From: an uncultured virus (IMG/VR IMGVR_UViG_3300032160_000002) | Lineage: Duplodnaviria; Heunggongvirae; Uroviricota; Caudoviricetes | Strand: one strand, 5' to 3' | DNA length: 20,000 nucleotides | IMG/VR virus record: IMGVR_UViG_3300032160_000002 | Part shown: in pieces, positions 605 to 16,595 of the stretch | How positions within the stretch are numbered: the first letter of the stretch is position 1 | How the letters are laid out: each line of letters opens with the position of its first letter | Made by a program: the position numbers and the translations under genes | Notes under the pieces: model-generated | Told to the model about the DNA's origin: nothing | The model's database searches: none | The model's input: the letters and a program-made list of their open reading frames with translations, nothing else

Positions 605-1210
605 ATGCCCCGAAAAAAGAAAGCAGCCAAAGCCCGTCGTGGCGGAAATCCCGCCAACCTCGAAAAGTCGCGCGCACAGACTAAAGCCCATCTGCAGCGA
701 GGCCGGCAAAAAGAACGCGAACTGTCGATCCCGGAGATTGAGTATTGCGCCTGGCGGGCGCAGGGAGCAGCCCAATGGGATGCGGCGGAGTTTGCCGGTA
801 TCGCCAAAGGGAACCTTTACCGCCTCGAACAGCGCGAGAGCACACAGAAAACTATCGAGGAGTTCAAAGACAAATTCAAATCCGGCGCGATCGACCGCGT
901 GGAGCAGATGCGGCAAGAGTTCACCGCATTCGTCTTCGGGCAATATCGCTTGCGGTTGCGGAAGATGAAGACTCACTACTTCCGCGGCGATGAGTCGATC
1001 CAGCGCATGATTGAAACCGGCTTCAAGGCTGCCGGGCTGATCCAGTCGCAGAAAACGGTTAACCAGCAGGTCAACAACGACAACCGGAATACCACGAATC
1101 AGCTTTACGCCAAACGGCTCTATCTGCCGGATTGGCGAAGGGAAACCATTGAAGGGCTACAGGCAAAAGAATTACAGGCAGCGAAGGAGCCGGCCAAGCC
1201 CGCGCCCTGA
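605..1210 (+). CDS. terS: putative terminase small subunit / HTH DNA-binding protein (201 aa)
   Basis: Immediately upstream of terL. Basic N-terminus, HTH-like segment AQGAAQWDAAEFAGIAKGNLYRLE, helical middle and Asn/Gln-rich linker. ATG 605 preferred over TTG 590. The call rests on position and architecture. Confidence 0.6.
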   Translation: MPRKKKAAKARRGGNPANLEKSRAQTKAHLQRGRQKERELSIPEIEYCAWRAQGAAQWDAAEFAGIAKGNLYRLEQRESTQKTIEEFKDKFKSGAIDRVEQMRQEFTAFVFGQYRLRLRKMKTHYFRGDESIQRMIETGFKAAGLIQSQKTVNQQVNNDNRNTTNQLYAKRLYLPDWRRETIEGLQAKELQAAKEPAKPAP

Positions 1211-1286: not shown

Positions 1287-3806
1287 ATGATGACGGATGT
1301 TCAAGTCGAGCCGAAATTCCCGACGCAAGGCAGTTTTACGCCCGCCAGCCAAGCGCAGAAGGACTGGCTGAATTCCCGCGCAGAATTATTGCTCGGCGGC
1401 GGAAGTGTCGGCTCGCTAAAGACCTCGACCATGCTCGTCGATGGCTCCGTCGAATACGACAACTCGAACATGCACACCATCATGTTCCGCAAGACGCTGG
1501 CGGAGCATTCTGAGGCGATCCGGATCTCGCGCGACTGGTTTGCTCAAACCGGAGCGTCCTTCTCCGAAAACGTCCCCCTCGACAACGGGACCGGCACGCC
1601 TAGCTTCAACGGTAACTCCCATATGTGGCGCTGGCCTTGGGGATCAACCTTTCAGTTCGCCTACTGCGCGACCGACAACGACGTTTACGCGCACCAGACC
1701 CAGAGCTACTGCGTGGAAGTCGGCACCCCCGTACTGATGGCCGACGGCACGTATAAAGCGATTGAGTCTATTGCTGTTGGTGACGTGGTGGCGACACTCG
1801 AAGGGCCTCGCCCGGTGACTCGGACACATGGGGTAAGGTGGAAGCCCTGCGTGCGCGCCGATATTCTCTCTGCTGCAGGGCAGCGCGTAATTTCCTCGCA
1901 GGTACATCCGGAGAACCATCGGGTTTTACTGGCTTCGGGGTGGGAGTCCTACGCTTCGCTAAAAGATGCTCGAAGCGCCTCCGCAGTGTCATATGACCAC
2001 AACCTAGCACCTTCGCAGCCTCAAGAGTTGTTCGCCCTTGCAGTGCTTGCTTCACCTGTTCTTCGGTCACTGGAACGATCTGCGCCGAGACCCACTGAAT
2101 GCTATTTACATCACAAAGCTTCCGCACGGTATTCCAACACATTCCTAGACGACGCGCTGCATCTTGGAGCGTCATGTGAGGATCGGCCGCTAACGGTATC
2201 ACGGCGGCAATTAAAGAGGGATCATGAATCTTCGCCTTTTGTAAGTGATGGAAGCCTATATGCTCGCTATGGGTGGGAAACAACCGTAGATTTTCGTCGC
2301 GATTGTCGCTGCGAATCTTGTTTATGTGATGAACAGCCTCCATTCCTGACAGGTACCTCCCAAGGCGTTTCTCGACAACAAGTCGGTGCTGTGGAACGAA
2401 TCCATCCCAGTGCGCTGCTGGATGGTTCGACCGGCGTTCTAGGACGTAGCCAGCAGCATCCATGCGCGTATCCCCATCCTTATACGCATGAACCCCGGCC
2501 TTGGTTGGGCGATGCGACCATTGCGCCATTGCGGCTCTCTCCTGTAGGTGACCGTGCAGTTTGCGACATTACGATTGATGGGCCGAATCACTATATAACA
2601 TCCCCTGCATTAGTCAACCAAAATTCCTGCATCCTCTGGGATGAATCAACCCGCACCGCCAGCGAATTCATGGTGCGCTACCTGCTGACCCGACTGCGAT
2701 CCACTGACCCATCGTTGTTCCTGCGATGCCGTTTGGGAACGAACCCCGGTGGCGAATTCGCGGAATGGCAGATGAAGATGTTTCTGGGCGGAGTCTGCCC
2801 GCACTGCGAACCTCCAAAGCTCTTTCCCGGAAAGATTTACCACGACACGAAGTGGCCGAGCGACGAGCGTAGCCTCGAAGGGATGACCACGCAGTTCATC
2901 TTCTCGAAGGTCACCGATCACAACCTGCTAGGCGAGAAGTACGTGCGCAATGTCCGTATGCAGCACGCAGCGACGGCAGAAGCTTTGCTAGCCGGATGCT
3001 GGAGGGCCTTCGAGGGCCAGTACTACACCATCTGGCATAGACCCACGATGGTCGTGCCGCGCCAGACCATCCGGGATAAATGGTATTGGGAATCTTGGGT
3101 CGGGGCGGACTACGGCTTCGCTGGATCAAAGGCCGTGGCCTACCTGTTCGTTCGCGATCCTAAGACACGGCGTATCTACATCATCGACGAGCACGTGGGC
3201 GAGCATGAAGCTGTCCGCGACTTCGCGCGTAGCGTCTACGAGAAGTTCGCCAAGAAGCGCGACGATCAGGAACAACCCAGGAAACTGCGGATCATGTACC
3301 TCTCACCCGACGCCTGGAACGATCGCGGCGATCAACATACGCTGGCCGGCCAGATGAATGACGTGCTGCAGCCGCATGGCCTCGTTTTCGTCAAGGCGAA
3401 GAATGATCGCGCTGGCGGCGCCATGCTAACTTACGAATTGCTGCGTGACGGCACGGTACTGATCGCGGACAACTGCACTCTGCTTCCCCCGGCCATCGAA
3501 AGCGCCGTACACGATCCGAAACAGCCGGAAGCCATCCTCAACGTTCCCAATAATCCGCACTCGGACGCGCGCGACGCATTCCGCTACGGGACTTACTCCC
3601 ATCACCGCGAGGCCCTAGAACCGCTCGATGTGCGCGTCGCCGAACGAGTGCAGGAAGAGTGGAAGCACGATCCGACCTCAGCCATGTTCCACGCGCAGCA
3701 GATTCGCGACGAAGAAAAGGCCAAAGAAGGCCCGAAAGTCTCCTCTTACGGCGGTGGCAACGCGCGGCGCCGCATTCAGCAGTGGGAGCGCTCGCGCAAG
3801 GGATAA
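1287..3806 (+). CDS. terL: phage terminase large subunit, intein-containing (839 aa precursor, ~534 aa spliced)
   Basis: Walker A-like LLGGGSVGSLKT, Walker B ILWDE, coupling motif LGTNPGG, RuvC-like nuclease motifs VGADYGF, LSPDAW and HSDARDAFRYG. The frame is open from TTG 1149; ATG 1287 is the first Met after the terS stop. Confidence 0.93.
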   Translation: MMTDVQVEPKFPTQGSFTPASQAQKDWLNSRAELLLGGGSVGSLKTSTMLVDGSVEYDNSNMHTIMFRKTLAEHSEAIRISRDWFAQTGASFSENVPLDNGTGTPSFNGNSHMWRWPWGSTFQFAYCATDNDVYAHQTQSYCVEVGTPVLMADGTYKAIESIAVGDVVATLEGPRPVTRTHGVRWKPCVRADILSAAGQRVISSQVHPENHRVLLASGWESYASLKDARSASAVSYDHNLAPSQPQELFALAVLASPVLRSLERSAPRPTECYLHHKASARYSNTFLDDALHLGASCEDRPLTVSRRQLKRDHESSPFVSDGSLYARYGWETTVDFRRDCRCESCLCDEQPPFLTGTSQGVSRQQVGAVERIHPSALLDGSTGVLGRSQQHPCAYPHPYTHEPRPWLGDATIAPLRLSPVGDRAVCDITIDGPNHYITSPALVNQNSCILWDESTRTASEFMVRYLLTRLRSTDPSLFLRCRLGTNPGGEFAEWQMKMFLGGVCPHCEPPKLFPGKIYHDTKWPSDERSLEGMTTQFIFSKVTDHNLLGEKYVRNVRMQHAATAEALLAGCWRAFEGQYYTIWHRPTMVVPRQTIRDKWYWESWVGADYGFAGSKAVAYLFVRDPKTRRIYIIDEHVGEHEAVRDFARSVYEKFAKKRDDQEQPRKLRIMYLSPDAWNDRGDQHTLAGQMNDVLQPHGLVFVKAKNDRAGGAMLTYELLRDGTVLIADNCTLLPPAIESAVHDPKQPEAILNVPNNPHSDARDAFRYGTYSHHREALEPLDVRVAERVQEEWKHDPTSAMFHAQQIRDEEKAKEGPKVSSYGGGNARRRIQQWERSRKG
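1768..2529 (-). CDS. HNH (HNH_3-type) homing endonuclease with two HTH motifs, encoded antisense inside the intein (253 aa)
   Basis: Contains YKDG..GYVLERRSNHPAAHWDGFVPQHRLVVEKRLGRYLSGMEAVHHINKIRSDNRDENLRLF..SEHIGFH, a typical phage HNH signature. HTH-like segments TLQDAARRLGMCWNTVRKLC and TTLEAAKVLGCGHMTLRRRF. AGGAG lies 9 nt upstream of ATG 2529. Confidence 0.88.
   Translation of the reverse strand: MAQWSHRPTKAGVHAYKDGDTRMDAAGYVLERRSNHPAAHWDGFVPQHRLVVEKRLGRYLSGMEAVHHINKIRSDNRDENLRLFPTHSEHIGFHHLQKAKIHDPSLIAAVIPLAADPHMTLQDAARRLGMCWNTVRKLCDVNSIQWVSAQIVPVTEEQVKQALQGRTTLEAAKVLGCGHMTLRRRFEHLLAKRRTPTPKPVKPDGSPDVPARKLRAALQQREYRRARRASTLPHVSESPGEALRVSPPRHQQQ
2539..2543 (-). promoter_or_regulatory. 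Shine-Dalgarno site (AGGAG) for the antisense HNH gene
   Basis: The minus strand reads CAGGAGAGAGCCGCA-ATG; the spacer to ATG 2529 is 9 nt. Confidence 0.7.
2590..2617 (-). promoter_or_regulatory. sigma70-type promoter for the antisense HNH gene
   Basis: Minus strand TTGACT (2617-2612), 16-nt spacer, TATAGT (2595-2590). Each hexamer matches TTGACA/TATAAT at 5/6 positions; the -10 box is ~60 nt upstream of the HNH start. Confidence 0.7.
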
Positions 3807-3814
3807 CGAAACCG

Positions 3815-5377
3815 ATGAAAACTTTCTTCAACCTGGTACGGACCCTCGCAGCGGTGTGCGCTCTCTCGCTTGCAGCCTTGGGACAAGGGGTTACAGTCAC
3901 CGCGACGCTCACCGACGGCCAGGGCATTCCGCAGAAAACATCCTATCTCCACTGGCAATTGTGGAACTGCGGCAACAATGTACCGCAGATCATCGGCCAG
4001 CCCTACGCCATGGTCGCGCAGCAGTTCGACATGCGCGCCAATCCGACCACCGGCGTGATCTCGGGCTCGGTATACGGCAACGACCAGATCGAATGCGGAA
4101 ACGTTTTATCGACGCAGTGGATCGTCACCGAGTTCAAATCGAGCGGCCAGGCCGGAGGACAGCCCCAGTACTACTGCCTGACCAACGGTGAGAGCTTCAA
4201 TCCCGCGACGACTCAGGTCTGCCAGGTCGTGCCTCCGCCTCCGGGCTACATCCTGCTATTCGGCAATCCGATCCAGAGCCAGACTCTCGACCAGCCGCTC
4301 GGAACGGAGATGAACTTCCAAGGGACGATGAATTTCTGTTCCGCGACGGTGCTCTGCGCCGGAGGGGAAGGAGCGTATTCGCTCGAAGTCAATGGCGTTG
4401 GTCTCAGTGGCGGCGACACCGTGAACTTTAACAATTCGCTGCCTGCGGCCGGAGCCAATGGGCTCAACGTAATCTTCCAGACTTCGAAGAGCGGATCCAC
4501 CGACAGCGTCAGCGCGGAACTTATCGGAGATGGGAACGCGGGTCACTTCCTGGACGGACAAGGAGTATTTGCCGCCCCACCGGGTAACGGGCTCCCCAGC
4601 AATCCCCAAACCGGCGACACCCTGCGCTGGAACGTCAACGGAGACAACGCCTGGGATGCGGTGAACTACTCGAATACCCGGATTGTCTCGGTGTTCTTCA
4701 CCGCAGGCTCGAACGATTTCGGAGCGTCCGGCGGGAAGACAACTACCCCCAACGCAACCGGCGGCGTGGCCCAGGTTCCTGCGACCTATACCGACGACTT
4801 TGGGGGAAACCTCTTCGTGAACGGCACTCCCTCGACCAACACGCTCGTCGGAGTCGACTACGAAGCGGGCGCCAACTTAGGCGACTTTGGGATTGGATCC
4901 TTCTACAAATGGAGCTTCCGTTTTGCCGCAGGCTATACCACCAGCGTTCGTTACTGGATGGGCATGGGAGTCTATTTCATCGGCGGGACCGGGGCGAACG
5001 GGACTGCGCTTCTCGGCACCACGGCCTACGCGACCGACACTCCCAACAAATCTACCGTCGGATTCCGCTTTTCCGCCGGAACCGATAGCACATGGCAGGC
5101 CTGTGCCGTCACCGCCGGATCCAGCAGCGGAACGCAAACCTGCACCTCCACTGGAGTTACCCCCGACACGAACCCACACCTGTTTGAGATGACCACCACG
5201 GGAACGGTGGTGACCTATTACATCGACCATGTGCAGGTCGCGACCGTGAGCACGAATGTTCCCTCCGGCCTTCTGGGCGGCAACTCCGCGGCCTTGATGT
5301 TTTGGACCGGAGACAACAAGAACACCAGCAACAATATTTCCGGAACGCACTACTACATGACGCTCTCGCCCAAGTAA
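3815..5377 (+). CDS. signal-peptide-bearing beta-rich protein with C-terminal ConA/lectin-like domain (520 aa); putative virion or surface protein
   Basis: ATG 3815 lies 8 nt after the terL stop. MKTFFNLVRTLAAVCALSLAALGQ is Sec signal-like. The C-terminal PHLFEMTTTGTVVTYYIDHVQVATVSTNVP resembles ConA-like beta-sandwich motifs. The ORF-track start at 3659 overlaps terL and is unlikely. Confidence 0.8.
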   Translation: MKTFFNLVRTLAAVCALSLAALGQGVTVTATLTDGQGIPQKTSYLHWQLWNCGNNVPQIIGQPYAMVAQQFDMRANPTTGVISGSVYGNDQIECGNVLSTQWIVTEFKSSGQAGGQPQYYCLTNGESFNPATTQVCQVVPPPPGYILLFGNPIQSQTLDQPLGTEMNFQGTMNFCSATVLCAGGEGAYSLEVNGVGLSGGDTVNFNNSLPAAGANGLNVIFQTSKSGSTDSVSAELIGDGNAGHFLDGQGVFAAPPGNGLPSNPQTGDTLRWNVNGDNAWDAVNYSNTRIVSVFFTAGSNDFGASGGKTTTPNATGGVAQVPATYTDDFGGNLFVNGTPSTNTLVGVDYEAGANLGDFGIGSFYKWSFRFAAGYTTSVRYWMGMGVYFIGGTGANGTALLGTTAYATDTPNKSTVGFRFSAGTDSTWQACAVTAGSSSGTQTCTSTGVTPDTNPHLFEMTTTGTVVTYYIDHVQVATVSTNVPSGLLGGNSAALMFWTGDNKNTSNNISGTHYYMTLSPK

Positions 5378-5437
5378 TTCGCAGTTCGGAAACACACTCT
5401 GAAATTTTCTTCTTTCGTTTTCTCTGGGAGCTTCCTT

Positions 5438-8400
5438 ATGAGCTTTCGCCGTCGCAATCTGCCTGTTCTTCTCTTTTTTCTCTGCGGTTCGCTCGCCTGG
5501 GGCGCGGATCCTTCGGTGCGCCATGGACTACCAAAAGGGTTGGCTTCGCCCTTCCCTGCCCCGGCGACAGGGGTCCAGCTCTCGAATGGCTTGGTTATTG
5601 ATTCGGGCGGCAACCTGATGATCAACGCAGGCCTCGGCGGTGGCGGCGTAAGCCTCAGCAACGGTCTCTCGCTCGACAGCAGTGGCAACTTGCTAGTCCA
5701 TTGCGTGGTCGGTTGCTCTAGCGGCGGCTCGGGCACCGTGCAGGCGGCTCCGCAGTTCACTGTCGGCTGCTATCCCAACACGCCCTCGGCAAGCGTGATC
5801 GGCGGCTGCACCAATATCCTGAGCGACGGCAACGGAAATTTAATCCTCTCTCCAAGTTCCGGGACCAGTTCGTTCACGGCCCCAGACTACGGAGCTTCGC
5901 CAGTGCTGGGAGCCATCAATGATTTGAGTGCTTCCACGTCCACCACCGACAACTCATTTATTCGTCGAATCAGCGCTGGCACAACCAGCTATCAAAATCC
6001 CTTGCTCGTCGACGTCTTTGGCTATCCGCAATTGCAAGTTGCCAGCCTGCAGGGAGCTTCGCACGTCGGCACGATTCTGGTGGGCGGCTCGATCCCCGTC
6101 AATACGTTTACGCCAGGCTCGTTCTACACCGGCCCTCTCACTACTTCGCAGACGAGCACGATGTGGATTTACTCGAAATCGCGCACGTCCGCACTCACCC
6201 TAATTGCCGATGAGACGAGCGCCAGTTTTGGCTCGATCTTCCGCATGCGCACGTCACAGGCAGCAGCGACCACGTTTAAGGGCTTTGAGCTTTGCACGGG
6301 TATGACCACCTCGCCGACTGGCGATGGAAGCTGCTCCAGCGGAAACATTCAGGCGTATCTCGACGGAGCGGGAAATTACTTTGGAGCAAGTTATACAGGA
6401 CTCAGTTCAGCGTTTTTGCTGTCGAGTACATGCCCCGGATCGAATCCCTCGCCGCTGAGTGGCCTGTCCGGTTTAGCCGTATTTTCTGATTGCAATTTTT
6501 ACAGTTCCAACAATGGGGGCACCTTCTATCAAGTTGTCAACCTCGCTCCCGTTTCGGCCAACACGATTTTCGGGAATCTCACCGGATCATCCGCCGCGCC
6601 ATCGTTTGTCGCTACCCAAGGCACCGATAGCAAGGTTATGACGGCGGGAACAGTCTCCGGCACGTCACAGAGTCTTTGCACGGATGCAAATGGCGGAGCA
6701 ACCACGGTAAGCTGTCCACCGGGCGTGGCTCTCCCGGTGAGCGCGGCGAACGGTGGCACCGGACAGACCACAACCGTTTGGGGCGATCCCCGCAACTCGA
6801 CTTCTCCCGCCATGGCCGCTGGGGCCGACTGGTGCGCTGGGGTGAATTCGCTATGGTCTTCTTCGGTCCATAACATCGATGGGTCGAACGTTGGAACGTG
6901 GACGAGCGGCGGACAATTATTCTGCAATTCCAATCCATTCACAAATGCGCCGAGTGGAGCAATTCTTAGACTCCCATGCGCGACCATCGTCATCTCGGTT
7001 AGTTGGGCCACGGGCGGAGCGCCACACGATACCATCCCTTGCATCGGCAACAACGGCAATGGCGCTTCCTATGCAGGAACCGTCATCCAGCTTTGCTCGG
7101 ACTCCACGGGAAGCACCGGATGCGGCCCGAACGCCTACCCAAGTTTTGAACTCACGGCAACGAATGAGTATCCCGTCGGCGAACCCAATGCGCCAGCCCT
7201 CGTTTGCTATTCGAGCGGCGCAACCTGGGGATCGCACTTCTGTAAGACAGGGTCAACGGTCAGCACCGGGACTGCGACGTTCGCAGCATCGACCAGTGTC
7301 ACGGGAAGCTCTGTCACGTGGACATCGGCCATGGTTGGCGGTTTTGTCACAGACTGCGATTCGACTCTGTCCCCAGCGTGCTCCGCCATCGGCCACATCA
7401 TCGCGGTGCCGAACTCTACTACGCTGACTCTGGACGCAAACTGGACGGGGAGCGCGAATTCGGCGCACGCCTACACGATTTTTGAACCAAACGTCTTTGT
7501 CGCGTATTGCGACGGCTGCAAAGCAGGCTCACTGAATAGTACCGTCTTCGCGCACCACCTCGGCCCAGTGCATATCGATCTGGGCGGAATCGCGAACGCT
7601 ACAGCCTATCTCGACCCAGCGATTTGCCAGGAGCGCTGTCTGGTTGATGGCATTGCCGTGACCCACAACGGCGGCAACCAGACCCACGAGGAAACCAATC
7701 AGGCTTATGCGTGCGGAGTTTGGGATCGCAGTTTCCGGACCGGTGGCGGCTCGGCGCACTGGGGCATGTCCTCGCCCTCGCAATGTTCTGTGGGCACCAA
7801 CGGCGGAGGGACGACCAGCAACGGCTGGATGATCGAGATGTACTCGATTCTCACGCAGTTGACCGGCGGCGGCCCGGAGATTTTTTATGCAGGAACCGTA
7901 ACCGGCGCTTCGGGACACCTGATTCAAATTCCGCTGGCCATCGATGGCATGCAGGGCGCAAATACCTTCCACTGCCCGCACATGGAATTCATCAACGGCG
8001 ACGGAGTCTCGATCGGTGTCACCAATGCGGTGAGCGGCATAAAACTCGAAGGCTGCACCATCGCCAACACCTTCAACGGCGATGTGGTCCACTTCCTGAC
8101 GCCAACCAATGGCACCAGCATCTCGAATACCGTGGAGAATCTGACCTCCGGCAGCGGCGCGAAATCTCTGATCGTGGACGACTCCAACACCGGAACGAAC
8201 GTCACGTCGGCAACCTATATCGCCTACTGGCAACAGACGGGATCGCTGGCGATGCTGGCCTCGATCATCGACAGCGGCCTTACGGCGAGCACCAGCCCGA
8301 TTTGCCCGCATGGAACGAATGGAGCGTTTACGATCACGGGATGCAGCGGCGCAGGTGCGGCTTCGACCGTAATTCCGGTCGCGAAAACCTCCAACTACAC

Positions 8401-9274
8401 GTTGACTTCCGGCGATTTCCAATCGGCCAGTACGACCTCGGTCGAAGCGCTGCAATTTACCATCTCCTCGACTACCTCAGTCACCGCAACCCTTCCATCC
8501 TCGGCTCCGGCTCAGATCAGCAGCCAGAATCCCTGCGTGTGGATTGAGAACTCGATTGCCTCGGCTCCTTGGGTATTGCTGATCAATTCAAACAGCCTCA
8601 CGCTCGACGGCACCGCGTACCCGGTGGCTTCAACCACCGACGTGGGAGTGAGTCCGGGAGAATCCGTGGAAATCTGCTCCAACGGATCCAACTATCTGGT
8701 TGCGGCTGGATCTGTGGCCATCATCCCCATTCAAGTGGGGCGGGGCGGAATCTGGAGTAATGGCGCTCACTTCACCCTTGGGGCTTATGGGGAAAATGGC
8801 ACAGGGGCTTTAGCCATCAATACGATGTACGGTTCGCAGTTGACGCTTTCGCAGCCGATGGCGCTCGGCGATTTCATCGTAAGCGCCACCACCGCAGGAA
8901 CCGGCAGCGTGGTATTTTACGCCTGCGTCTACAACTCTGCGGGAACGACGCTACTCTGGTCTGCCAGTGCTTCCATCGGCACCGGCACCGGACCTTTCAC
9001 CGGCAGCGCCACGCAGACGGTTCTCGCCCGAGGGAATTATCTGGTTACCTACGGCAACACAGGGACGACGGGAGCGGAATATTGGTGGTATGAACCGCCT
9101 CTCTCGGGCATGAGTAGCCTGTTGAACAAACTGAATGCGGTGAGCGGCAGCAATCCGCCGGTCTATTTCACGGCGGCCAACGGGGTGAGCAGCGGCTGCC
9201 CGAGTTCCACAGGAGCACTGTCGGCGGAAAGCGTCGGCACCATCCTGGAGACGATGGTTGGGTTAGGGCCGTAG
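5438..9274 (+). CDS. large Gly/Ser/Thr/Cys-rich tail-fibre/adhesin-like protein with signal peptide (1278 aa)
   Basis: N-terminus MSFRRRNLPVLLFFLCGSLAWGAD; GGAG upstream. Fibre-like motifs LSNGLxxDSxGNL (x2), LPVSAANGGTGQTT and AKTSNYTLTSGD, plus a probable beta-helix segment. The function call is by motif resemblance only. Confidence 0.75.
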   Translation: MSFRRRNLPVLLFFLCGSLAWGADPSVRHGLPKGLASPFPAPATGVQLSNGLVIDSGGNLMINAGLGGGGVSLSNGLSLDSSGNLLVHCVVGCSSGGSGTVQAAPQFTVGCYPNTPSASVIGGCTNILSDGNGNLILSPSSGTSSFTAPDYGASPVLGAINDLSASTSTTDNSFIRRISAGTTSYQNPLLVDVFGYPQLQVASLQGASHVGTILVGGSIPVNTFTPGSFYTGPLTTSQTSTMWIYSKSRTSALTLIADETSASFGSIFRMRTSQAAATTFKGFELCTGMTTSPTGDGSCSSGNIQAYLDGAGNYFGASYTGLSSAFLLSSTCPGSNPSPLSGLSGLAVFSDCNFYSSNNGGTFYQVVNLAPVSANTIFGNLTGSSAAPSFVATQGTDSKVMTAGTVSGTSQSLCTDANGGATTVSCPPGVALPVSAANGGTGQTTTVWGDPRNSTSPAMAAGADWCAGVNSLWSSSVHNIDGSNVGTWTSGGQLFCNSNPFTNAPSGAILRLPCATIVISVSWATGGAPHDTIPCIGNNGNGASYAGTVIQLCSDSTGSTGCGPNAYPSFELTATNEYPVGEPNAPALVCYSSGATWGSHFCKTGSTVSTGTATFAASTSVTGSSVTWTSAMVGGFVTDCDSTLSPACSAIGHIIAVPNSTTLTLDANWTGSANSAHAYTIFEPNVFVAYCDGCKAGSLNSTVFAHHLGPVHIDLGGIANATAYLDPAICQERCLVDGIAVTHNGGNQTHEETNQAYACGVWDRSFRTGGGSAHWGMSSPSQCSVGTNGGGTTSNGWMIEMYSILTQLTGGGPEIFYAGTVTGASGHLIQIPLAIDGMQGANTFHCPHMEFINGDGVSIGVTNAVSGIKLEGCTIANTFNGDVVHFLTPTNGTSISNTVENLTSGSGAKSLIVDDSNTGTNVTSATYIAYWQQTGSLAMLASIIDSGLTASTSPICPHGTNGAFTITGCSGAGAASTVIPVAKTSNYTLTSGDFQSASTTSVEALQFTISSTTSVTATLPSSAPAQISSQNPCVWIENSIASAPWVLLINSNSLTLDGTAYPVASTTDVGVSPGESVEICSNGSNYLVAAGSVAIIPIQVGRGGIWSNGAHFTLGAYGENGTGALAINTMYGSQLTLSQPMALGDFIVSATTAGTGSVVFYACVYNSAGTTLLWSASASIGTGTGPFTGSATQTVLARGNYLVTYGNTGTTGAEYWWYEPPLSGMSSLLNKLNAVSGSNPPVYFTAANGVSSGCPSSTGALSAESVGTILETMVGLGP

Positions 9275-9617: not shown

Positions 9618-12600
9618 ATGAAGCGCCTCCTTTTCCTCTGCTGTTTTGCCTGCCTAACTATTCCTGCGTTCGCGGCGGGAGGAACCTGTCCCACGGGAGC
9701 GAACTACATCGACCTGACTAACCCCTCGAATGGTGGTGGCCTTGGCTCAATTACGCTTTCCACTCTGGGCGAAACGTCTTGCTATTACATCTCCGCGAGC
9801 GGCCTCGATACGAATACCGGCACGGATGAATCTCACCCATGGCTTCATGCGCCCGGCATGGCGAATTGTAGTTCCACTTGTGCCGGAGTCACACCGACTG
9901 CCGGATTAGGCTTCATCTTCCGCGGTGGCGACACTTGGCATCAGCACTCGGGCAGTCCTCTTACCGGCGCGTGGGCGTGGAATTACAGCACAGGCACCAG
10001 CAGCAATCCCATCTATTTCGGCGTTGATTTCACCTGGTTCAGCGGGGGCTCATTCGTGCGCCCCATCTTCAATCAGGACAACCCCCTCAGCACGACCACG
10101 GTTTCCAGTTGCTCGTTCGCGGAAGACGGCAACACATTCCTCACCCTCTCCGGCAGCTGGATCATCGCCGATACGCTGGAATTTACCGGAAATTGTATGT
10201 CCGGCTCTGGCGACAACAGCACCATCGATCCCACGGGCGGCGCCGACATCGTCACCGAACGGCTTTACATTCATGGCTGGACGATGACCTCCGGCGTGGG
10301 CGATGACGGCGGCGTCAAAATCGGCACCAACGCGAACTCCACCGGCAACGTCTCGAACCGGCATCTGTTCGATGTGATCGACGGTTCCGACTCCACTTAC
10401 GGAACGAACTGCAATTCCTCCAGTTGCATCGGGGTCGGCAATTCTCCGCCCACGCACGGCGCAACCGGCTGGGGTTTCGGCGATGCCTACGACGTGGAAT
10501 ATTCCTTCATCCAGCACCTCTCGAATGGTATTCAGGCAGGTGAAGTCTGCAATCTGATTGGCGACACCATGCAGTTTATTTTCGAGCCCTCGTTCGGTGG
10601 ACGGCACGGGAACGTGGTCGAGCACAACTTTGGCGCGGGCTGCACCACGGGACTGATCTACAACAATCTGGTTCTGAACACGAACACCGGGGTGCGCTGG
10701 TGGCTGGAACTGGGCACCGGCTACATCTTCAATAACGTCTCCATCCATAGCGGGCACACCTTCACCGAAGGTACTTGCGGGGCGTGCGATCCCGACGGGC
10801 TGAATCTCTCGGGAACCGGCAGAACCGGATTCCCCGTCGTTCATTACTACCTTTACAACAATACCTTTCAAACGATCTTGTCGCAGGCACAGGCGGAGAG
10901 CAGTACCACGCCCGGCTGGGGATCTGGTTCGACGATCACCTTCGAAAACAATCACATCATGGATTACACCAGTTCGGGAGCCTTCTTTAACTGCCTTGGC
11001 AGCAATAGTTGCTCCGAAACCGACAACGGTGGATCGAAATTTATGACCACCTCGGTCGCGAACACGGACGGCTACGTGCTCGCGAATAACTACGCTCCGA
11101 CGTCTGGCTCCAGTCCAACGGTGGGCACGGGAAATAATGTCACCTCATCGTTTTGCTCAACACTGCCTAATGCCAACGCGATTGCGGCGTGCGAAGGAGC
11201 GACTTCGACGGGAGTGAGCGAGATTAGCGCCTGGGGTGGAAAATCCGCTTCTTATCCGGACATTACGGTCAATGCGAGACCCTCCTCCGGCGCATGGGAT
11301 ACGGGAGCCTACGAGTTCAATGCCGGGGTAAGTTTCACAGCCTCCCCTACCACGCTTCCCGCGCACCACTCCAGCAATATTGCCGTCACGCTCACCGGCA
11401 GTGGAACTTCGTGGACCGGCAGCACTGCATTTTCGATCTCAGGCGTAAGCGGTGCGACGCTAGTCAGCAAGTCGAACTCCTCTGCCACGAGTGAGACGCT
11501 GCAAATTACAACTGGCAGCGGCACAGGCACATTAACGATTACCGACACTACGGATTCAATTTCGACGACGGTTGCGGTAGCGACGGCCACGCTCGGACTT
11601 TCTCCGACAACCGGCGCCACCGGCACGACTCCGACCTTGACCCTGACGGGAACCAATACACTGTGGCTCTCCGAAACTCTGAGTGGCTTGTTTACCGAGA
11701 GCGGCGGATCAGGAGCGAGCCTTTCGGGTTGCTCTGTGACCACAAATACTGCGGCCACTTGCACGCTGACAGTTGGCTCCGCTACGGGCACGCTGACCAT
11801 CACAGACAACAGCACGACCGCGACGGCTAGCTTTACCGCCACTGCGTCCCTCGCTTGCGGTGGCACGGCGAGCGTCGTCCAGCATCTCTACACGACGTCC
11901 TGCGTGGGGAACGGATCGAACACGACTTGCACGGTCACGCCGTCTTCGACGAGCGGAGCGAACCATCTAGGCGGGATCGTTGCGTGGTTTTCCGGTTCGA
12001 GCAGTTCTACATCGAATGGGATTACCTCCGTCAGCGGCAACGTGAATGGGACGACCGGCTGGACAGCGTGCCCCAGTCACTCTTGTTTCGCCTCGGTGGG
12101 AACGATCGCCTCCGGCTGCGCATCCGGCTTCTGCTCACAGGATGTTTATTACAACCCCAACATGACCGGCGGTGACACTTCATTCACGGTGACGCTCGGA
12201 AATCCTCCACCAACTTTCTTCCAAGTCTGGTACGGGGAATGGTCGCTACCGGGGACTGGTGGCGCATTTTACGATACGAGCGGAAGCGGCACGGATGCGA
12301 CGGCCTGCACCAATTGTGCCGGGCAAGCTCTTACGTTGAGTGATAAACAGGACATCATCATCCAGACTTCGAACTCATCGCAGGAATGCACCGCGATCTC
12401 TCCTTCGACCTACTCCAACCCGGTGGATGTGGTTCCGACGACCGAGTATGGTGGGGTAGCAGCGGCGCAAATCGACGTGACTTCGGCGCCGACGACGCCA
12501 ACTTACACCTGCGTTTCTGGCACTGTTCCGGTATCCGGGCTGGCGCTGGCGGAGTGTACCGCTGCGCTCGGTACAACAGTTGTCAATCCTGCCTTCTCGC

Positions 12601-15600
12601 TCACGACAGGAAATTACGTCGGGCCACAATTTGAAATTCTGAGCGATCCAACCCCTGGAGCTACGATCTGCTACACCACGGACGGCTCGACCCCCGCAGC
12701 CTCGACGCCGGGAACCTGCAGCCACGGAACCACCTATACGGTTCCGTTTCTGCTGCCGCAGCCCACGCAGACTGTGCAAGCCCTAGGAACACTAAGTGGA
12801 GACACGAACTCTTCGGTCGTCTCAAGCGGGGCCATCAACATCACCAACGTGGCGCAACTGCCCGCCGTCCAGGTCGATAACAACGAAGCCGTTGACGGCA
12901 CGACCACGCTGACGACTTACGAGTTGAATCTCGGGACGCAGACCTGGACTGTCGGCCCGCCGCCGTCCTGCAGCTTCTCTGTGCCTTATTGGACGGTCGG
13001 AACCCCAACCTTGAGCGGCTTGCAATCGGCAATCAACGATGTGGAAATCTGCCGGACCCATTTCGGCTTCGCCTCGATCCTCGACATTCCTCCCGCACTT
13101 TATACCGGAGCGGCCGGGATCTACATCCCGCAATCCAGCTCCTCGCTCGCCACGCAGTTCAACATCCTGCGATCGACGCAAGATTCCAATCTGCCGAATG
13201 GAACCACCGTTTGCTCCCACGGCATTCAGGACAATCTGGCCACCTCGACCGATCCGGGAATCGACAATCCCGACTGTGCTGGGGATGTGATGACCTACCA
13301 GCTTGGAACTACCGTCACCTCGATTTCGGCGGGAGCTTTCACGCTAGCGAATGGCACCGCGACCAACACATCGAATTACGACGACGTGCAGTATATGTGG
13401 ACCCTCGAAGGATCCGGAACTACGCCGACCGCCATGCGCTTTTGCTCCCCTGTTGGCGGTGGTAGTAGTTCCTCGTTGGTTCCCGCATGCACCAGCTCCA
13501 CGCTGGCGCCGGATCATTGGCTGATCGAAGACGGCGAGTTTCGCATTCAGGCGGGAGACACAACCGGATCGGATATCGTTGACATGGCGGGAAGCGGGAG
13601 CGAAACGGCTACCAGCCAATATCCCACCCACATCCACTTCCGCAAGGACTGGGCGCATGGCGATTGGACAAGCCTGGTCGCCGGTGCAAATTCCGTCTCC
13701 GATGGTTTCAATCTGATCTGTCAATACTGTTCCATTGTGGACTCGCAGGTGAGCGAGGCGCTCCGGCCCGGCGCCGAAGGTCACGCCTTTATCTTTCAAG
13801 GAGACACCGCGAAGTTCAATCACAACTGGTTCGAGGGCCAATCCATCGGCATGATCACCGGAGGAAACTGCTCTCCATGGCCGGTGAGCGGCTACATTCC
13901 CTTTCAGGACGTTGAAATCCGGCGCAACCGGTTTACCTTCCCGTGGTCGTGGCTCGGAGTCGGAACCGTTCCGGGCGGCAACACGAACTGGGGCGGTTCT
14001 GGGATCGCCCGCAAAAATGCCGGACCGGAACTGAAATCCGGGCAACGGGATCTGATCACCGGCAACATCAGCGAAAACATTGATACCTCGGGCGGCCAGG
14101 GCGGGGTTACCGACGACTTCAAAACGGCGAACGATTCTTGCGGATTTGGAACCAACTATCAGAACATCCTCACCGACGTGACGGATGTCTCGAACATCCG
14201 GCGCAACGGCCTGGAAACGTTTGAACTCGTTCGCAACCCCGGAACTGTCGGCGGAGTGGATCAGGGGACGCGCCGGGTCAGCATGAGCAATGATTTCTGG
14301 TACAACATTTCGGAAACGAATTTCGGCGGGAGCGAGAATCAGGGCTTCCAGATTCAGGCATCCGGGTGGGCATGGCAGGGAACACTCACAGAGAATGCCA
14401 ATGGGTCGGCCACCTTTGTCGCGAATTGCTCCGTCGATCGAGGCACCTGTATTGGGCAGATCGCCTCCGTCACTATCAGTGGATGCTCTGGAGCTGGAAG
14501 TTGGTCAGCTTCCGCTCCAAATCTTACTGGCGGGACGAAAGCAACTGGAAGCTACAACGCTTCCTGTGTAGCAACCATCAGTAATCCGGGATCTGGATAT
14601 ACGTCCGCTCCGACAATTTCTCCTTCCACTGGTAGTGGAACAGCTACCATTAACGCCTCTTCGACCACGCCTCCTACGGGCTTTACCGTCCTCGACATTC
14701 CTCCGGGCGACATTGCCGGAGTCTACGGCTGCTCTGTCGTTACCTCGTTCAACCAGCCGACGACTTCCTATAGTTCAGGGTTTTTGCCTTCCGGGATCGG
14801 CCCTGTCGTCTTACCGGGCGTAAATCCACTGAGTCTGACCACAACCTATGCGTGGCCGACTTCCACGACGCCCAGCGGATCGTCGGACACGGCGGGATAT
14901 TGCAAGATCACAAACATGCAGAGTTTCCCGCAAGCGTTGACGGTTGTCCACAGCACCCTCGTTTCCAACGCTGCGCAGGCAGTCGCACCCTCTAACGGTT
15001 TCGGGAACTTCGTAACCAACGGGCCGAACTTCCAGCAGAACGGCCTGTGGCGCGATAGCATCATTCTTGGTGGAGGACTGCAGAATAGCAGCGGGATTGG
15101 CTCCGGGACGCCGGTCGAGAAATTCAATTGGGATATTACCACTCTCTCAATGGATCACTTGGTCTGGCCGACGATCACAGCCTCAACCATGACCGAGTAT
15201 GGGAACAATCCCGCCTATCCCGACTCGGCCGGCTGTACTGGAGCGGGTTGCCATCCCCCGACCACGATGTACTACCCGGCCACGCCGTATTGCACGGGCT
15301 CAAGTCCCACGTCTGCCTGTGTGGGATTCATCGGAGCTATGAGCGCGAGTTCGATGCCTTTGGTGCTGCCCGACTATCACAACTTTGCACTCATCGCAGG
15401 AAGCTCGTTCAAGGCCGGCGGATCGGAGCAAGCGTCGGACGGGACGGATATGGGCGTGAATATGTCCGCCATCGATGCGGCGCAGACCACGAATCAATAT
15501 GCCGCGGCGGGATTTTTCCCGGACACGCTCGGCACCTTTAGCTGCACACCCGCAACCATCCCCGCGAACCATTCCGGCACTATCGCCTTAACTTGCACGG

Positions 15601-16142
15601 GCGTATTCACCACATGGACGAGCGGCACGGTATTCTCCGCGTCCGGCTGCGCCTTCGTCAGTTCGTCCAATACTTCCGCGACACAAGAAACGGTCAACAT
15701 CTCGACCACTTCCGCCGGAACCTGCACCATTACCGACACCACAGATTCCGTCACGGCACCGATCACAGTCGGCACGGCAGGGTTGACCATTTCGCCTACG
15801 ACGGGCGCGACCAGCACCACTCCGACCGAAACCTTGACCTGCACCGGATCGCCCGCCCCTTGCCTGTGGCTCTCCGAGACTCTGAGCGGATTGTTTACGG
15901 TGAGCGGCGGATCGGGAGCCAGCCTTTCGGGTTGCTCCGTGACGACGAATACTGCGGCGACCTGCACCCTCGGGACCGGCACACTCCCCGGAACATTGAC
16001 GCTTGAGGATCAGAGCACGACCGCGACCGCGAACTTTACAGTAACTGGAACTCCGACGAGCCAGCAATTTCGCGTAGGTTGCCCCGTGGGAACCACCTGC
16101 CCGACGGGACACTTCAAGATCACCGGGGGAGTGATCCAGTGA
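9618..16142 (+). CDS. giant secreted-type multidomain protein (2174 aa): two putative parallel beta-helix regions, Ig-like repeats, chitobiase/Fn3-like domain
   Basis: Signal peptide MKRLLFLCCFACLTIPAFAA. YYISASGLDTNTGTDESHPW and FIFRGGDTW resemble the start of pectin-lyase-fold domains, closed by RPSSGAWDTGAYEF. PAFSLTTGNY..SDPTPGATICYTTDGSTP is CHB_HEX_C/Fn3-associated-like. The second region ends NFALIAGSSFKAGG..SDGTDMGVN. An Ig-like block is duplicated. Confidence 0.85.
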   Translation: MKRLLFLCCFACLTIPAFAAGGTCPTGANYIDLTNPSNGGGLGSITLSTLGETSCYYISASGLDTNTGTDESHPWLHAPGMANCSSTCAGVTPTAGLGFIFRGGDTWHQHSGSPLTGAWAWNYSTGTSSNPIYFGVDFTWFSGGSFVRPIFNQDNPLSTTTVSSCSFAEDGNTFLTLSGSWIIADTLEFTGNCMSGSGDNSTIDPTGGADIVTERLYIHGWTMTSGVGDDGGVKIGTNANSTGNVSNRHLFDVIDGSDSTYGTNCNSSSCIGVGNSPPTHGATGWGFGDAYDVEYSFIQHLSNGIQAGEVCNLIGDTMQFIFEPSFGGRHGNVVEHNFGAGCTTGLIYNNLVLNTNTGVRWWLELGTGYIFNNVSIHSGHTFTEGTCGACDPDGLNLSGTGRTGFPVVHYYLYNNTFQTILSQAQAESSTTPGWGSGSTITFENNHIMDYTSSGAFFNCLGSNSCSETDNGGSKFMTTSVANTDGYVLANNYAPTSGSSPTVGTGNNVTSSFCSTLPNANAIAACEGATSTGVSEISAWGGKSASYPDITVNARPSSGAWDTGAYEFNAGVSFTASPTTLPAHHSSNIAVTLTGSGTSWTGSTAFSISGVSGATLVSKSNSSATSETLQITTGSGTGTLTITDTTDSISTTVAVATATLGLSPTTGATGTTPTLTLTGTNTLWLSETLSGLFTESGGSGASLSGCSVTTNTAATCTLTVGSATGTLTITDNSTTATASFTATASLACGGTASVVQHLYTTSCVGNGSNTTCTVTPSSTSGANHLGGIVAWFSGSSSSTSNGITSVSGNVNGTTGWTACPSHSCFASVGTIASGCASGFCSQDVYYNPNMTGGDTSFTVTLGNPPPTFFQVWYGEWSLPGTGGAFYDTSGSGTDATACTNCAGQALTLSDKQDIIIQTSNSSQECTAISPSTYSNPVDVVPTTEYGGVAAAQIDVTSAPTTPTYTCVSGTVPVSGLALAECTAALGTTVVNPAFSLTTGNYVGPQFEILSDPTPGATICYTTDGSTPAASTPGTCSHGTTYTVPFLLPQPTQTVQALGTLSGDTNSSVVSSGAINITNVAQLPAVQVDNNEAVDGTTTLTTYELNLGTQTWTVGPPPSCSFSVPYWTVGTPTLSGLQSAINDVEICRTHFGFASILDIPPALYTGAAGIYIPQSSSSLATQFNILRSTQDSNLPNGTTVCSHGIQDNLATSTDPGIDNPDCAGDVMTYQLGTTVTSISAGAFTLANGTATNTSNYDDVQYMWTLEGSGTTPTAMRFCSPVGGGSSSSLVPACTSSTLAPDHWLIEDGEFRIQAGDTTGSDIVDMAGSGSETATSQYPTHIHFRKDWAHGDWTSLVAGANSVSDGFNLICQYCSIVDSQVSEALRPGAEGHAFIFQGDTAKFNHNWFEGQSIGMITGGNCSPWPVSGYIPFQDVEIRRNRFTFPWSWLGVGTVPGGNTNWGGSGIARKNAGPELKSGQRDLITGNISENIDTSGGQGGVTDDFKTANDSCGFGTNYQNILTDVTDVSNIRRNGLETFELVRNPGTVGGVDQGTRRVSMSNDFWYNISETNFGGSENQGFQIQASGWAWQGTLTENANGSATFVANCSVDRGTCIGQIASVTISGCSGAGSWSASAPNLTGGTKATGSYNASCVATISNPGSGYTSAPTISPSTGSGTATINASSTTPPTGFTVLDIPPGDIAGVYGCSVVTSFNQPTTSYSSGFLPSGIGPVVLPGVNPLSLTTTYAWPTSTTPSGSSDTAGYCKITNMQSFPQALTVVHSTLVSNAAQAVAPSNGFGNFVTNGPNFQQNGLWRDSIILGGGLQNSSGIGSGTPVEKFNWDITTLSMDHLVWPTITASTMTEYGNNPAYPDSAGCTGAGCHPPTTMYYPATPYCTGSSPTSACVGFIGAMSASSMPLVLPDYHNFALIAGSSFKAGGSEQASDGTDMGVNMSAIDAAQTTNQYAAAGFFPDTLGTFSCTPATIPANHSGTIALTCTGVFTTWTSGTVFSASGCAFVSSSNTSATQETVNISTTSAGTCTITDTTDSVTAPITVGTAGLTISPTTGATSTTPTETLTCTGSPAPCLWLSETLSGLFTVSGGSGASLSGCSVTTNTAATCTLGTGTLPGTLTLEDQSTTATANFTVTGTPTSQQFRVGCPVGTTCPTGHFKITGGVIQ
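11334..11845 (+). repeat. internal repeat copy 1 (~170 aa, tandem Ig-like pair)
   Basis: FTASPTTLPAHHS...LWLSETLSGLFTESGGSGASLSGCSVTTNTAATCTL...STTATASFT; homologous to 15537-16045. Boundaries approximate. Confidence 0.85.
15537..16045 (+). repeat. internal repeat copy 2 (~170 aa, tandem Ig-like pair)
   Basis: FSCTPATIPANHS...LWLSETLSGLFTVSGGSGASLSGCSVTTNTAATCTL...STTATANFT; the core from 15864 matches the core from 11661 at 35/36 aa. Confidence 0.85.
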
Positions 16143-16145
16143 GTT

Positions 16146-16595
16146 ATGGTGATTGATCTAAGCACTCTCTCCGCCAAGAAAGCGCTGGCGGCGAAGTATG
16201 CGGCAAAACACGGGCTGGACGCGGTTCTTGTGTGCGCCGTCTGTGAACAGGAAAGCGATTGGAACACCTTTGCCACACGCTTCGAGCCCGCTTTTGAAGC
16301 CCGCTATATCAAGCCTGCAGTTCCCTCAGCTCCCACCACGCTCGAACTCACGAAAGCAATGTCATTCGGTCTCATGCAGATGATGGGCGAGGTTGCGGTC
16401 GAGTTCGGATGGAAGGGGCGCTTTCTGACGGAGCTGTGCGATCCCGACATTGGCGTGGATTTCGGCTGCGCAAAATTACGAAGCTGTCTCGATCGCGCCG
16501 GCGAGGATGAAACGAAAGCACTCTTGTTCTACAACGGCGGCGGCAACACGCTCTATCCCGCACAGGTGCTCGCGCGCAAAGCGAAGTACGAATGA
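16146..16595 (+). CDS. SLT-family lytic transglycosylase (lysozyme-like fold), probable endolysin
   Basis: Catalytic motif I LVCAVCEQES, motif II SFGLMQ, CDPDIGVDFG and motif III ALLFYNGG..Y; followed by small membrane proteins. Confidence 0.88.
   Translation: MVIDLSTLSAKKALAAKYAAKHGLDAVLVCAVCEQESDWNTFATRFEPAFEARYIKPAVPSAPTTLELTKAMSFGLMQMMGEVAVEFGWKGRFLTELCDPDIGVDFGCAKLRSCLDRAGEDETKALLFYNGGGNTLYPAQVLARKAKYE

Follow-up and report, generated by a model that had tools for sequence, protein, structure and literature searches.

The terminase large-subunit gene (terL) in a 20,000-nucleotide (nt) stretch of DNA from an uncultured virus of the Caudoviricetes (IMG/VR record IMGVR_UViG_3300032160_000002; the whole stretch is called the window here) is interrupted by an intein, and within that intein, on the opposite strand, lies a gene for an HNH homing endonuclease. 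The codons of the intein's C-terminal splicing segment probably double as the expression signals of the nuclease, namely a portable internal promoter driven by its -10 box and a Shine-Dalgarno (SD) site. The nested anatomy is evident in the window, and across the intein family the geometry of the -10 box is fixed and the synonymous site that supplies one of its bases is biased. That transcription initiates at this box, when it would do so, and any effect on terL are what we infer from these observations.

The long plus-strand open reading frame (ORF) that contains the intein encodes the terminase large subunit, with 72 homologues at E <= 0.001 that mostly measure 500-560 residues. Homologues lacking the intein are 85-89% identical to the window's terL, and the closest, P0121 (89% identical, 532 residues) and P0122, are without exactly the 305 intein residues. 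The N-extein (positions 1287-1709, plus strand; 141 residues) ends in AHQTQSY, the point up to which these two proteins align; the junction reads QTQSY|TCILWDE in P0121 and P0122 versus QTQSY-[305 aa]-SCILWDE in the window. The 305-residue intein (1710-2624, plus strand) shares the frame of terL; its first residue is Cys1 (CVEVGTPVLMADG), its last residues are ALVNQN, and Ser+1 follows. The C-extein (2625-3806, plus strand) begins S-C-I-L-W-D-E. We take ILWDE to be the Walker B-like motif (hhhhDE) of terminases. A motif of the form hhhh(D/E)E directly follows the C-extein start in the window and in all 75 unique members of the family described below; it is presumably Walker B, with a GxxGxxKT-like motif ~95 residues upstream.

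The AF2 model of the intein is confident for residues 1-95 and 250-305 (block pLDDT 88-98) and drops below a pLDDT of 50 for residues 126-248. This sense-frame filler (2085-2453, plus strand) is the reverse complement of the body of the HNH gene. A Foldseek search with the model gave 18 PDB matches at E <= 0.001, those listed being intein or Hint-domain entries (PI-SceI, gp41-1 and MchDnaB-1 among them); model and search together support a Hint fold. Among 25 aligned family members, C1 and N305 are invariant, and each of the 75 unique members listed has a Ser, Thr or Cys codon at +1. The block B histidine (H70) is invariant in the family, the threonine three residues earlier is not conserved, and the penultimate residue is Q in the window and K, R, Q or S across the family, never the expected His. 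Inteins without the block B Thr or the penultimate His exist. Protein splicing of the terL intein is predicted, because the host gene is essential and the frame is open.

The antisense ORF (1768-2529, minus strand; 253 residues) is nested wholly within the intein and encodes an HNH_3 homing endonuclease with HNH and HTH domains. Pfam assigns it to HNH_3 (PF13392; E = 2e-8, 34.1 bits against a cutoff of 24.8) and to HTH_23 (31.6 bits), and its PHROG matches are HNH families (best 2e-18). The protein has 128 homologues and an AF2 model with a mean pLDDT of 85.8. In the HNH core, H67 is invariant and H68, N76, N80 and H90 are at least 90% conserved among 50 sequences; all five residues are present in the window. 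The element occupies the same site in terL genes that are 25-47% identical, close intein-less alleles exist, and the HNH protein is predicted to cleave the intein-less allele site-specifically, as in homing. The element is a non-canonical intein of the kind in which an antisense endonuclease ORF lies between the splicing blocks and the sense frame remains open. ORFs of at least 200 residues occur in the window on the plus strand only, if those that lie opposite a long plus-strand ORF are set aside; the HNH gene therefore cannot use neighbouring transcription and needs a promoter of its own.

The signals from which such a promoter could be built lie within the last 32 codons of the intein, directly upstream of the HNH ORF. 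On the minus strand, TTGACT (2612-2617) and TATAGT (2590-2595) are separated by a 16-nt spacer (2611-2596) and together give 10/12 matches to sigma-70-type hexamers, and AGGAG (2539-2543) stands 9 nt before the HNH ATG (2529-2527). The two arrangements, TTGACT-N16-TATAGT (2617-2590) and AGGAG-N9-ATG (2543-2527), are present just as an earlier, sequence-only reading of the window had described them. In the terL frame, plus-strand positions 2589-2618 read CAC TAT ATA ACA TCC CCT GCA TTA GTC AAC, or H-Y-I-T-S-P-A-L-V-N. The -10 box is the complement of cAC TAT Ata, the His-Tyr-Ile of block F, and the -35-like hexamer, which is 8 nt away from the junction of intein and extein, that of ttA GTC AAc, the Leu-Val-Asn of block G. 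The SD motif is the complement of (t)CT CCT, encoding Ser-Pro within CTC TCT CCT (L-S-P; 2535-2543, plus strand). The promoter-like motif thus overlies blocks F and G as had been proposed; the ribosome-binding site, which had been placed in the same blocks, falls just N-terminal of the block F core. H-N-F is more usual in block F, and N-H-Y-I stands here instead.

The codons involved are, as the same reading had remarked, uncommon in the terL exteins, where TAT accounts for 1 of 19 Tyr codons, ATA for 0 of 17 Ile, ACA for 1 of 33 Thr and TTA for 1 of 37 Leu. A pattern scan of both strands of the 20-kb window found five sites with at least 9/12 matches, against a mean of 7.1 in shuffled sequences, and this is the sole 10/12 site. 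The predicted leader is less structured than its shuffles (z = +2.1).

In the mechanism that we propose, the terL intein would be a composite mobile element, with an HNH_3 gene on the opposite strand between its splicing halves and the sense frame through the HNH region held open as unfolded filler. A promoter that is to travel with the element must be inside the intein, where the 32-codon C-terminal splicing segment is the sole DNA upstream of the HNH start. This segment would be dual-coded three times, with His-Tyr-Ile giving the -10 box, Val-Asn the -35-like TTGAC (in the window) and Ser-Pro the AGGAG. A housekeeping polymerase of the sigma-70 type would start near position 2583 (minus strand), ~7 nt past the -10 box, and produce an HNH messenger RNA (mRNA) with a leader of ~54 nt, independently of terL transcription.

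Relatives of the element were collected by intein-alignment searches of viral, genome and metagenome collections. The 25-member intein alignment was too diverse for locus search, and the three-member alignment A3 was used instead; 292 sequences (291 loci and the window) were scanned. These held 127 complete inteins of the family, 75 of them with unique DNA. An antisense HNH-profile match lies inside the intein in 72 of the 75, including the truncated L204. The remaining three (L033, L169 and L246) are mini-inteins of 147-151 residues that occupy the same terL site and have no HNH gene. L204 (185 residues) keeps an HNH remnant, and TATAAT is still present in it. Grouping by single linkage, with 80% identity required across 174 aligned nt, resulted in 56 clusters, made up of 52 HNH-bearing clusters, the three mini-inteins and L204; the cluster counts below take one representative from each of the 52. 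The strand and frame relation between intein and HNH gene is identical in 24 of 24 loci checked, and all 45 HNH ORFs whose ends were checked terminate within the intein. A single-query search with the window's HNH protein found no related loci in genome_contigs or viral_contigs, and P0002 as query recovered distant free-standing HNH genes only (L001-L004). Among isolated phages, tblastn with the HNH protein returned 44 records, none covering 80% of the query, and tblastn with the intein returned three, which covered 13-22% of the query and lay in other genes; no cultured phage carrying the element was found in the phage collection.

The -10 box is the part of the motif that the family retains. 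It sits at a fixed position, 35 or 38 nt from the intein end; TAnnnT occurs at the complement of His-Tyr/Phe-Ile in 41 of 52 clusters, and at least five of six bases match TATAAT in 44. The box reads TATAGT in the window, and its family form is TATART. In 24 of 52 clusters the box is preceded by TGn, an extension that is frequent when the Ile codon is ATC. Within the box the one free base of consequence is the third of the Tyr/Phe codon, where a T gives the critical A at position 2. This base is T in 42 of 52 clusters (TAT 40, TTT 2, TAC 8, TTC 2). For comparison, 14 further two-fold codon columns that end in Y were counted in these sequences; T ends 273 of their 509 codons (0.536), and the difference is significant both with the window (binomial p = 4.2e-5) and without it (p = 6.4e-5). 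The flanking Asn and His columns end in T at fractions of 0.54 and 0.47, and other Tyr columns at 0.50-0.63. TAT is found in 21 of the 25 representatives whose exteins have a third-position GC content of at least 0.70. The bias persists at lower identity thresholds: 0.72 leaves 48 clusters (p = 2.9e-5), and 0.68 leaves 30 (p = 3.7e-3).

Two further features of the codons at the box point the same way. The adjacent Ile codon, whose variable base is position -14 of the putative promoter, is ATT in only 3 of 49 cases, whereas four other Ile columns have ATT in 46 of 121 (Fisher p = 1.1e-5); throughout the family, ATC and ATA are the common codons at this site, which follows the block F Tyr, and ATT is nearly absent. 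In the HNH-less mini-inteins, the Tyr/Phe codon ends in C in three of three cases (0/3 T-ending; Fisher p = 0.011), and these three probably represent only two independent losses. The sequence-only reading had asked whether related inteins conserve the synonymous positions of the two hexamers: at the -10 box they largely do, at the -35 they do not.

The start of the HNH gene varies in position and is almost always downstream of the box. Measured from the 3' end of the -10 box to the first plausible HNH start in the 52 clusters, the distance is 61 nt in 23 clusters, including the window, and 58-67 nt in a further four. It is 49 nt in seven clusters, 46 nt in one, 34 nt in eight, 31 nt in two, 28 nt in two and 10 nt in three, with single clusters at 4 nt (L192) and -11 nt (L016). 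In 50 of 52 clusters the start thus follows the box by 10 nt or more, and the two with an incompatible start, L016 and L192, are also without the -10 box. Upstream of the HNH start, 31 of the 52 clusters have an SD-like run of 4 nt or longer and four have a 3-nt GGA; 17 have none. In the consensus of the 15 members whose geometry is exactly that of the window, GTgATATA.TG, an AGG-rich run and the ATG are retained, and most other third positions vary. The comparison with relatives supports the earlier claim that the element carries its own signals within the splicing codons, through the fixed -10 box, its T bias and the SD-like runs; the -35 lends it no support.

In L027, L035 and L085, the HNH ATG lies just 10 nt past the -10-like box, which suggests that their mRNAs would be near-leaderless. 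The longer HNH N-termini of these three members contain a P.HPLG motif that they have in common with the database protein P0005.

How much of the window's motif is owed to chance can be estimated in two ways. In 150 first-order Markov simulations, sites with at least 10/12 matches occurred at a mean of 0.84 per 20 kb, and 57% of the simulations had one or more; for any particular stretch of 100 nt on a single strand, 0.0021 sites are expected. Synonymous resampling, in which the 32 C-terminal intein residues were held fixed and their codons redrawn under three usage models, produced a site of at least 10/12 at a rate that depended on the usage: 3.5% of cases for that of the terL exteins, 23% for that of terL and three neighbouring ORFs, and 35% for uniform usage. 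The residues N-H-Y-I and V-N predetermine most of both hexamers, and the free choices are chiefly Tyr TAT (-10 position 2) and Val GTC (the G of TTG). Because resampling succeeds in 3.5-35% of cases, the window's motif taken alone does not stand out from chance; only the family comparison exceeds chance, and it does so for the -10 box alone.

These figures, in which one site of at least 10/12 per 20 kb is expected from composition, are among the results that weigh against an internal promoter, and there are others. The -35 is unconserved across the family, where the homologous hexamer is TTNAYN, forced by (V/I)-Asn; TTGACT in the window is among the better hexamers of the family. Compensation of a missing TGn by a better -35 was considered and rejected (mean 3.7 vs 4.0 matches, p = 0.50). 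The AT-rich codons are partly general to the intein, with 54% of two-fold codons ending in T across the splicing domains, and are not specific to the hexamers. At a clustering threshold of 0.64, ten clusters remain and the signal is lost (p = 0.33), and the binomial test assumes that clusters are independent. A Tyr/Phe codon ending in C coexists with an intact HNH gene in 10 of 52 clusters, and one small Asp column (n = 17) is as rich in T (0.82) as the Tyr/Phe column. That the hosts use TATAAT-type promoters is assumed.

Much of this would be expected if the motif were a by-product of the block F and G residues and of AT-leaning synonymous usage, with no antisense function. That account draws on the 23-35% of resamplings that succeed under non-extein usage, on the general T-richness of the splicing domains, on the unconserved -35 and on the loss of signal at the coarsest clustering. 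It does not explain why the Tyr/Phe column exceeds its Asn and His neighbours and the other Tyr columns, why ATT is depleted at the next codon, why none of the mini-inteins has the T, or why HNH starts lie so consistently downstream of the box, and we regard it as rather unlikely. Transcription of the HNH gene could also come from outside the intein, from an antisense promoter in the C-extein or beyond it, or from a phage-specific promoter, with the box serving another role at the nucleic-acid level. L016, whose only start candidate is upstream of the box, would fit such a source, as would the 10 of 52 clusters that keep the HNH gene without the box. The terL hosts are, however, only 25-47% identical to each other, so that a promoter in the extein would not travel with the element, and a scan of the minus strand of the window from 2530 to 6000 found no other site with at least 9/12 matches; an outside source appears quite improbable.

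A constraint on the sense strand, for example a slow TAT/ATA codon pair that aids folding of the C-terminal splicing domain, might likewise produce the bias. In its favour there is nothing direct; TAT and ATA are rare in the window's exteins. The bias is also seen in AT-rich members, where TAT is not rare, and is absent from the three mini-inteins, which must still splice; we give this explanation very little credence. The portable, -10-driven promoter and SD site are thus the reading that we retain. A more far-reaching version, in which the C-terminal splicing motifs have been moulded into an additional, host-independent means of expressing the antisense nuclease, seems doubtful to us. It would combine, in block F, a -10 box or its extended form, in Ser-Pro an SD site, and beta-strands that partly overlap the HNH N-terminus. 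An active -35, expression early in infection and a dampening of terL by the antisense RNA, all of which the sequence-only reading had entertained, are unsupported.

Contigs from RNA libraries give a weak hint of transcription. Four contigs are 100% identical to the window (1790-1975, 1895-2061, 1930-2087 and 2243-2442), and all lie inside the HNH ORF. They come from four metatranscriptome runs of one study, one contig each, with no expression level given. They carry neither strand nor end information, DNA carry-over is possible, and none covers 2530-2617; the uncovered parts (the exteins and 2443-2624) are uninformative. Two regulatory effects belong with the more far-reaching, doubtful version outlined above. 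With the box a mere 8-35 nt away from the extein junction, the nuclease might repress its own promoter, as I-TevI does, while bound to the half of its target that remains. Transcription converging on terL might also reduce terminase synthesis or make it later.

Several observations on the HNH gene and its overlap with the intein stand apart from the question of its expression. Both strands code between 2457 and 2529, where intein residues 250-273 (2457-2529, plus strand) lie opposite the first ~24 HNH codons (2529-2457, minus strand). These intein residues are confidently modelled as beta-strands and include the family-conserved HPYT.E.R, and the complement of the intein's HPY is the conserved HNH motif YK(D/G)G. 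At the other end of the gene (1768-1994), the last ~60 HNH codons are antisense to the N-terminal splicing domain. Close HNH homologues span just ~77% of the ORF (P0002, 217 residues), and a helix is nevertheless modelled at HNH residues 211-230 (pLDDT ~88). A Foldseek comparison of the HNH model with solved structures gave no significant match, I-HmuI (PDB 1u3e) ranking third at E = 0.32, and the HNH profile reached I-HmuI among PDB sequences at only E = 0.057. A search for a terminator after the HNH stop yielded only a weak hairpin (1983-1971) that falls inside the ORF; terminator-like sites number 15 in the window and 19.9 in shuffles.

Elsewhere in the window, the small-terminase position upstream of terL is taken by a 201-residue ORF (605-1210, plus strand) with no Pfam or PHROG match. 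The packaging genes are followed by two very long Gly/Ser/Thr-rich plus-strand ORFs (5438-9274 and 9618-16142; 1278 and 2174 residues), which probably encode virion fibre or tail proteins. A 149-residue ORF (16146-16595, plus strand) matches PHROG families of lytic tail protein, endolysin and transglycosylase (E = 1.7e-8). Positions 5300-5500, between two plus-strand ORFs, show a dip in GC to 0.45-0.48 and a strongly negative AT skew and may be an intergenic control region.

If the proposed reading is correct, a promoter and a ribosome-binding site laid over catalytic splicing codons would amount to a compact, three-way dual coding, and would explain the self-sufficiency of an element that moves between unrelated phages. 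A single synonymous change, TAT to TAC, would then silence the nuclease and leave the intein protein unchanged. For annotation, the element is a warning that one long 'terL' ORF can conceal a second gene and, as proposed here, a regulatory site.

Inteins with antisense endonucleases have precedents. Antisense LAGLIDADG ORFs in the inteins of Synechocystis DnaX and of a Chloroflexus SpoVR-like protein are recounted, with citation of Gorbalenya 1998 and Gogarten 2002, in a preprint by Gosselin, Arsenault and Gogarten (bioRxiv 10.1101/2025.01.02.630785), which itself describes actinophage inteins with antisense LAGLIDADG and VSR-like ORFs. The window's element resembles these in having an opposite-strand ORF between the splicing blocks and a sense frame that is open but unfolded, in the presence of the terminase large subunit among the host genes and in signs of continuing mobility. 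It differs in its nuclease, which is HNH_3 plus HTH; HNH endonucleases are listed in that preprint, supplements aside, as in-frame only. The text of the preprint does not address how antisense nucleases are expressed, and the word 'promoter' occurs in it 0 times. A literature search combining intein with antisense or opposite-strand returned no paper on an antisense HNH intein or on a promoter inside intein codons. As for the nuclease itself, I-HmuI is like the window's HNH protein in that an HNH core is followed by helical DNA-binding modules, a similarity that is weak by both measures given above and does not establish subfamily membership.

The intron endonucleases of phage T4, which have their own promoters inside the intron and include the autorepressing I-TevI (PMC2988022), are the nearest functional analogue. 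They share with the window's element a nested homing nuclease that has its own promoter (putative here) and ribosome-binding site, and an expression separate from that of the interrupted gene. The T4 promoters, in contrast, are same-strand promoters of the phage middle or late class within non-coding intron RNA (PMC2988022), whereas the putative promoter here is on the opposite strand and is overlaid on codons for catalytic splicing motifs. Another relative in design is the hidden, out-of-frame HNH insertion of the ShiLan type in a phage methylase (Arsenault et al. 2025, PMC11855218), in which an HNH homing gene likewise occupies another frame of an in-frame insertion and the host-frame product is filler. 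The ShiLan insertion uses the same strand and lacks both splicing domains and a detectable ribosome-binding site, and leaderless translation has been proposed for it (PMC11855218); unlike it, the HNH gene here is antisense, sits in a true intein and is preceded by an SD motif and a promoter-like box. Antisense-nuclease inteins are thus known, if rare, and what the window and its family would add to them is the HNH type of the nuclease and evidence that its expression signals are dual-coded.

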